64,000 nucleotides of DNA from Escherichia coli (lineage in GTDB: Bacteria > Pseudomonadota > Gammaproteobacteria > Enterobacterales > Enterobacteriaceae), in the NCBI RefSeq assembly GCF_029227855.1, contig NZ_CP074356.1; one strand, written 5' to 3'. Below, piece after piece: positions 16,535 through 17,316 of the stretch (positions are counted from its first letter, which is position 1; each line of letters begins with the position of its first letter). Below the pieces are notes generated by a model. It worked only from the letters and a program-made list of their open reading frames with translations. It had not been told where the DNA came from and ran no database searches. The position numbers were made by a program, and so were the translations under genes.

Positions 16535-17316
16535 TTTGCGCACTCCTGACGTTTAGCAACATATGCGGCTTGCCCTGAACACCGGGCACCACTGTATTGA
16601 TGCTCATTTTCCATAGCCATTCCCTTTTGTTCATTACATCCATGTCAGTCTGAGACAGGCCTGAATCCTGTCAGCAAAGTATAAAACCTTACTTGCCTAT
16701 GAATATCTACTGACTTTTCAGGAAAAAAGTCATGATTTGATAAAAATCATCAAACTCAAAAAAAAACCGCTAGTATATTCTGAATATTCCGAATAGTTAC
16801 GTAGATGAAAATACTTGTCACCACCGCTACTTAATTCCGGTGGGAAATTATTTATTTCCGCATAATCAGCTATGTATTATTTAAAACAATTAGTTTGTAA
16901 ATAATATAAATTGATAACATATCAAATACATCAAAAATACCATTCACAGGCATTATTAATATAGACATCAATATAGCAACATCAAATTCCAATTAGTAAT
17001 AAGATATGCTTTTAAATTGCATGCAAATAATTTTAAATGAGCGTTTTTTGATACTTTAGAGTGTTTCCCACCATTTAATATCACTGTGTAGAGTTGATAT
17101 CACTACAACAGAAACATGCATGTCATTTGTTTACTTCTCTTTTTACTACAGAAAAATTTATCTATTTTTCTAAGCATCAGTGAAATACTCATAAAGGTAA
17201 CTATTATGTCTATGCCATTAAGCAATGCCCTTCAGAGTTAAATTATTACAGATAATCACTTCCTTCATCATCCAAAAGTCGACAGTGAGTTAACACGTAA
17301 ACATGAACGTGCACGC

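Follow-up and report, generated by a model that had tools for sequence, protein, structure and literature searches.

How much of the long AT-rich DNA between iraD and its divergent neighbour in Escherichia coli is control DNA, and how much of it deserves to be called non-coding? The question is raised by one part of the window (the whole stretch of DNA analysed, 64,000 nucleotides, one strand), which the initial annotation had described as about 770 bp of non-coding sequence at 16544-17316, rich in A/T runs and upstream of iraD and of a gene in the position of yjiC. With a probability of about 0.95, this DNA is the control region between the divergent E. coli genes iraD and yjiC, known in detail already, and the locus departs nowhere from the published picture. 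The region is among the better-dissected control regions of E. coli and matters little as a discovery. The value of the identification lies in the annotation: the region should be entered as promoter and leader of iraD, containing idlP, ytiD and ytiC, and not as empty non-coding DNA.

Identity, boundaries and base composition

By megablast against complete E. coli genomes, the stretch is found in 4904 of 5426, at 90-100% identity and almost always as a single chromosomal copy per genome; at least 80% of it is present in 4888 of them, and idlP, ytiD, ytiC and yjiC are annotated under it. Annotations were taken from the RefSeq record of a strain that is 100% identical over the stretch, and from MG1655. 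The gap is flanked by iraD and yjiC, with hypT-iadA beyond the one and uxuR-uxuB beyond the other. The gene layout in MG1655 is identical, but yjiC is intact there. The flanking genes are as follows.

16142-16534, minus strand: iraD coding sequence, 130 aa, anti-adaptor protecting RpoS from RssB/ClpXP (RefSeq and NF010726)
17207-17992, plus strand: yjiC pseudogene (DUF2686, YjfZ/YjiC family; alignment to K-12 yjiC, 'frameshifted' in RefSeq)
17242-17992, plus strand: frameshifted DUF2686 gene, as annotated in RefSeq in the 100%-identical strain
from 18133, minus strand: uxuR (RefSeq annotation of the 100%-identical strain)

Both neighbours had been named correctly: iraD matches the NCBIfam equivalog NF010726 with 300.7 bits against a cut-off of 198, and the yjiC-position gene matches Pfam DUF2686. 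The region delimited at 16544-17316 is likewise real, but both of its edges were slightly off. On the left, a GTG at 16543 had been taken as the iraD start, 9 bp from the accepted ATG at 16534. On the right, an ATG at 17317 had been taken as the start of the neighbour, whereas the ancestral yjiC ATG lies at 17207, and the intervening 110 bp belong to the yjiC pseudogene. The intergenic gap between the accepted iraD ATG and the ancestral yjiC ATG is therefore 16535-17206. Its length, 672 bp, is that published for the iraD upstream intergenic region, which was called "unusually large for E. coli" (Sass, Ferrazzoli and Lovett; Sass 2022).

Codon 12 of yjiC (17240-17242) is changed from CAA to TAA, a nonsense codon, and 44 bp are deleted between TATCCCGG direct repeats at 17883/17884. 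The 192-aa ORF at 17317-17895 comes from the interior of yjiC, covers positions 46-238 of the 285 in DUF2686 (Pfam), and should be read as a piece of a decayed gene. An exact 58-nt haplotype around the nonsense codon is present in at most 1046 complete genomes. Farther out, between uxuR and uxuB, 18929-18974 matches the Rfam model naRNA4 (REP-derived nucleoid-associated RNA) on both strands; the score of 40 bits is below the gathering score of 59.5, and the match is probably an ordinary REP element.

The AT-richness and the long A/T runs that had been pointed out are evident in the figures. The G+C content of 16544-17316 is 0.326, against 0.490 in the whole 64-kb window (32.6% and 49.0%), and across the 64 kb only 2.2% of 773-bp windows have a value this low or lower. 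The value falls to 0.277 (27.7%) upstream of the P2 start at 16671 and to 0.263 (26.3%) upstream of the P1 start at 16951. A or T homopolymer runs of at least 5 nt occur at 11.9 per kb, compared with 4.0 per kb window-wide, and runs composed of A and T only of at least 8 nt occur at 14.9 per kb, compared with 3.9 per kb, so that runs are 3-4 times denser than in the window at large. One segment stands out in this respect.

16952-17206, no strand assigned: the most AT-rich part, 26% G+C; shared divergent control DNA upstream of P1 and yjiC, and part of the H-NS-bound promoter island (composition, published island)

Promoters, H-NS occupancy and the distal DNA

Two iraD promoters have been mapped by others, and both fall inside the region when their published offsets are counted from the iraD ATG.

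16951, minus strand: P1 transcription start, -417 from the iraD ATG at 16534 (published offset)
16958-16985, minus strand: TTGATG, 16-nt spacer, TATATT, likely P1 core promoter (consensus scan; linked to P1 by spacing)
16671, minus strand: P2 transcription start, -137 from the iraD ATG (published offset)
16678-16683, minus strand: TATACT, likely P2 -10 hexamer, 6 nt upstream of the start (read from the sequence)

P1 is a sigma70 promoter switched on at entry into stationary phase (late log) and by AZT, and P2, which uses sigma70 or sigmaS, works in every growth phase (Sass 2022). The two starts are 280 nt apart in the window, in agreement with Park et al. 2017. Counting to -137 from the iraD ATG places P2 at 16671. 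The base there is an A, with CA and next GGA after it, which gives 3 nt ahead of the GGA of the CsrA site BS1, exactly the number that precedes it in P2 transcripts (Park et al. 2017). Between the end of the TATATT hexamer and the published P1 start the distance is 7 nt, and this spacing suggests that TTGATG-16-TATATT is the P1 core promoter; one base within its spacer, at 16967, differs from K-12. TATACT is likely to be the -10 hexamer of P2.

Both promoters respond to ppGpp and, independently of LexA, to AZT; growth phase and DNA damage also act on them. Both are repressed by DnaA-ATP and modulated by SspA. Two protein-binding sequences in the region were located from published work.

16607-16615, plus strand: DnaA box '-81', TTTTCCATA, 8 of 9 matches to TTWTNCACA, overlapping the idlP start codon (motif scan)
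16767-16782, minus strand: HusR (YnfL) genomic-SELEX sequence CAGAATATACTAGCGG, inside ytiD (exact match to the table in PMC12844172)

Expression of iraD rises when the DnaA box is mutated, and the 672-bp fragment is shifted by DnaA with a Kd of about 42 nM (Sass 2022). The HusR site is listed in a published binding-site table (PMC12844172). The IHF consensus has one weak match in the region. A search of 16100-17700 for sites resembling intrinsic terminators gave none. When 15000-19500 was scanned with Rfam models under a permissive threshold, nothing credible came up in the region, where the sole hit was to a snoRNA model (E = 0.48).

Promoter prediction added little. Promoter-like hexamers are present upstream of both -417 and -137. 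A scan returned 4 promoter-like sites in the 672-bp gap and 13 in the remaining 19.3 kb that it covered, so that the density of about 6 per kb is about nine times that of the flanks (0.7 per kb). The density does not exceed what base composition predicts, with 5 sites found and 5.3 expected from dinucleotide shuffles. Promoter density alone is therefore no evidence of function.

The expectation that the region upstream of stress-regulated iraD would be nucleoid-protein-bound promoter DNA is borne out by the literature, in which P1 and P2 are mapped, the island is H-NS-bound and H-NS inhibits iraD. The island "4554354_526 yjiC(-)/iraD(+)" is one of 78 promoter islands and belongs to H-NS class K (Panyukov and Ozoline 2013). 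In that study H-NS occupancy was scored from the ChIP data sets of Kahramanoglou (MG1655) and Oshima (W3110), and the yjiC/iraD spacer was scored as bound in both. If an offset of +1977 from U00096.2 to U00096.3 is assumed, the island would map to about 16671-17195. H-NS has also been reported, according to a paper citing Battesti et al. 2012, to inhibit expression of IraD and IraM. The high-affinity H-NS motif TCGATAAATT is not enriched in the region (1.5 per kb versus 1.3 per kb). The case for H-NS binding thus rests on the published ChIP data and the AT content, and not on the motif.

The same observations may be read differently. The AT-rich stretch could be mainly a horizontally acquired remnant that came with yjiC and is silenced by H-NS, its promoter-like sites being mostly by-products of composition, and only its proximal part would then be iraD control DNA. 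This is possible, although we consider it somewhat improbable as the principal account. Low G+C does run on through yjiC (39%) to uxuR, the yjiC/iraD island is flagged as associated with predicted foreign genes as well as being H-NS-bound (Panyukov and Ozoline 2013), and the promoter-like matches are as many as composition predicts. On the other hand, the distal AT-rich part contains P1, to which iraD owes its induction in late log phase and by AZT (Sass 2022), and no gene in the cell is induced more strongly by AZT than ytiC. Simple silence therefore does not describe the distal part.

The transcribed leader and the control of iraD translation

About 417 bp of the stretch described as non-coding is the transcribed iraD leader, which contains three translated ORFs and the CsrA/idlP switch. 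The statement that it has no convincing ORF does not stand: RefSeq annotates idlP, ytiD and ytiC on the minus strand, and all three have been shown to be translated (Park et al. 2017). The features of the leader are listed from the iraD start outward.

16531-16614, minus strand: idlP (ORF27), 27-aa iraD leader peptide, its UGA stop overlapping the iraD AUG (AUGAUG) (translation, annotation)
16544-16546, minus strand: GGA in the iraD Shine-Dalgarno, -12 to -10 (motif scan)
16610-16612, minus strand: CsrA site BS4, GGA, -78 to -76, overlapping the idlP AUG (motif scan, published footprint)
16621-16623, minus strand: CsrA site BS3, GGA, -89 to -87, idlP Shine-Dalgarno (motif scan, published footprint)
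16639-16641, minus strand: CsrA site BS2, the main site, GGA, -107 to -105 (motif scan, published footprint)
16666-16668, minus strand: CsrA site BS1, GGA, -134 to -132 (motif scan, published position)
16730-16873, minus strand: ytiD (ORF47, 47 aa), small ORF of the P1 leader, starting with ATA here and ATG in K-12 (annotation, translation)
16870-16920, minus strand: ytiC (ORF23), 16 aa here and 22 aa in K-12 from the same ATG (annotation, comparison)

The idlP ORF, with 27 codons and a stop overlapping the iraD AUG, is found in the window sequence itself. The overlap of the two genes gives translational coupling, the mechanism of which has been shown (Park et al. 2017), and the seven annotated strains compared share one IdlP protein accession. 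GGA motifs are present at all four published CsrA sites, one of them on the idlP Shine-Dalgarno; CsrA footprints have been published at -78/-77, -90 to -84 and -112 to -103. The GGA in the iraD Shine-Dalgarno is published as unbound by CsrA, being sequestered in an RNA hairpin. The minimum-energy fold of the P2 leader pairs AGGAGUGCGC, the iraD Shine-Dalgarno, with early iraD codons. Its stability is that of shuffled sequences (z = 0.10), and the predicted fold therefore adds no independent support for a hairpin sequestering the Shine-Dalgarno. Support for a hairpin at the iraD ribosome-binding site comes from the published structure mapping (Park et al. 2017). Another ORF of 47 aa (MDVMNKREW...), beginning with ATG, lies at 16500-16643 on the minus strand, in a different frame from idlP and the iraD start, both of which it overlaps; it is unannotated in the records compared, and its ATG falls inside BS2.

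The working of the region is best explained, from the K-12 results, as follows. Transcription of iraD on the minus strand would start from P1 (16951, sigma70) at entry into stationary phase and under replication stress, and from P2 (16671) in all growth phases. Both promoters would respond to ppGpp, be modulated by SspA and be repressed by DnaA-ATP, in part via the box at 16607-16615. The P1 transcript would carry a 417-nt leader with the three translated small ORFs ytiC, ytiD and idlP, of which only idlP would matter for iraD. Because the hairpin hides the ribosome-binding site of iraD, iraD would be translated mainly by ribosomes that terminate idlP. In K-12, CsrA bound to the GGA sites BS1-BS4 around the idlP ribosome-binding site blocks idlP translation, which in turn blocks iraD translation and shortens the half-life of the mRNA. 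Finally, the very AT-rich DNA at about 16671-17206 would bind H-NS and so hold down iraD, and probably yjiC, in unstressed cells.

This scheme stands on experiments by others, which showed the promoters, the binding of CsrA, the coupling, the effect of DnaA, H-NS occupancy by ChIP and the effect of H-NS on expression. The functional data all come from K-12, and we infer that they apply unchanged to the strain analysed, in which all published elements are present at their exact published offsets. Via IraD, the locus connects RpoS stability with DNA damage, with starvation through ppGpp and SspA, with replication status through DnaA, with carbon status through CsrA, and with nucleoid silencing by H-NS.

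Natural variation in the leader and the status of YtiC and YtiD

A single coding-strand change, G to A at 16871, accounts for the state of both distal ORFs in this strain, as it converts the ytiD ATG to ATA and at the same time creates the TAG (16870-16872) that shortens ytiC. In an alignment of eight diverse strains, 4 of 281 positions are variable in 16535-16815, compared with 11 of 144 in ytiD, where the differences in translation are amino-acid changes in the N-terminal half, and 58 of 310 at the 5' end of yjiC. Although the sample is small, these counts fit a proximal promoter, leader and idlP under constraint, with ytiC, ytiD and yjiC probably little constrained. IS1 elements target the AT-rich spacer. 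For example, two IS1 copies replace ytiD, ytiC and yjiC in strain 2018-18.25PC, where idlP-iraD is kept, and in strain Esc20 an IS1 is inserted within the region. Loss of the ytiD start, truncation of ytiC and the IS1 deletions, together with near-invariance of idlP and the proximal 280 bp, agree with the published view that only idlP matters for iraD.

The variation also speaks for the acquired-remnant account set out above, as yjiC, ytiD and ytiC are decayed in the lineage, the distal part is more variable than the proximal 280 bp, and the whole distal part has been deleted by IS1 in at least one strain with idlP-iraD intact. That account is more a complement to the reading as divergent iraD–yjiC control DNA than a rival of it.

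It is improbable that the stretch is a small-protein operon, with YtiC and YtiD as main products having a replication-stress function of their own rather than belonging to a leader. Both ORFs are translated (Park et al. 2017), both are named genes in MG1655, and AZT induces ytiC 260-fold, more than any other gene in the cell, and ytiD 33-fold, followed by idlP (18-fold), iraD (14-fold) and yjiC (11-fold). Such induction, however, follows simply from location on the P1 transcript, and replacement of the start codon of either ytiC or ytiD by a stop leaves iraD expression unchanged (Park et al. 2017). Moreover, the exact 57-nt haplotype around the ytiD start, with its ATA codon and 16-aa ytiC, is present in 797 of the 5426 complete genomes, and the ATG-to-ATA change recurs on another background, in strain HKUOPY1. 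The variability of ytiD noted above argues in the same direction, as does the result of an NCBIfam search, which gave no family for YtiC or YtiD (nor for IdlP).

The start of YtiC deserves a separate remark. Park et al. 2017 used the internal ATG at 16920, whereas MG1655 YtiC is annotated as 33 aa with its start at 16953-16951, and other RefSeq records have shorter forms of 16-27 aa. The published P1 start (16951) is the G of the MG1655 start codon, so that the 33-aa protein requires either initiation of transcription 2 nt upstream, giving a leaderless mRNA, or another transcript. Were P1 to initiate 2 nt further upstream, the mRNA for YtiC would be leaderless, and YtiC would be the earliest product of the transcript that replication stress induces most strongly, perhaps with its own function in that response; we regard this as improbable, and the loss of the ytiD ATG together with truncation of ytiC in this lineage argues against an essential role.

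The divergent iraD–yjiC control region of the window may finally be compared with three known systems. The closest is the K-12 iraD region itself (Merrikh 2009, Park 2017, Sass 2022), which is the same locus with the same 672-bp gap and about 98% identity over the whole stretch, rising to 100% over the roughly 290 bp upstream of the iraD ATG, as far as 16822. Each published element is found at an equal offset, and the differences consist of the one base in the P1 spacer (16967), ATA for ATG in ytiD, the shortening of ytiC from 22 to 16 aa, and the yjiC pseudogene. The second is the set of promoter islands of Panyukov and Ozoline 2013. Like these, the yjiC/iraD locus is AT-rich, occupied by H-NS and promoter-dense in comparison with its neighbours; promoter islands are described as transcriptionally near-silent, but this one contains the inducible promoter P1. 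The third is CsrA regulation. In most other CsrA targets the protein directly occludes the Shine-Dalgarno of the target itself. In contrast, iraD is the founding example of CsrA control through coupling to an upstream leader ORF, with the CsrA sites placed around the idlP ribosome-binding site.
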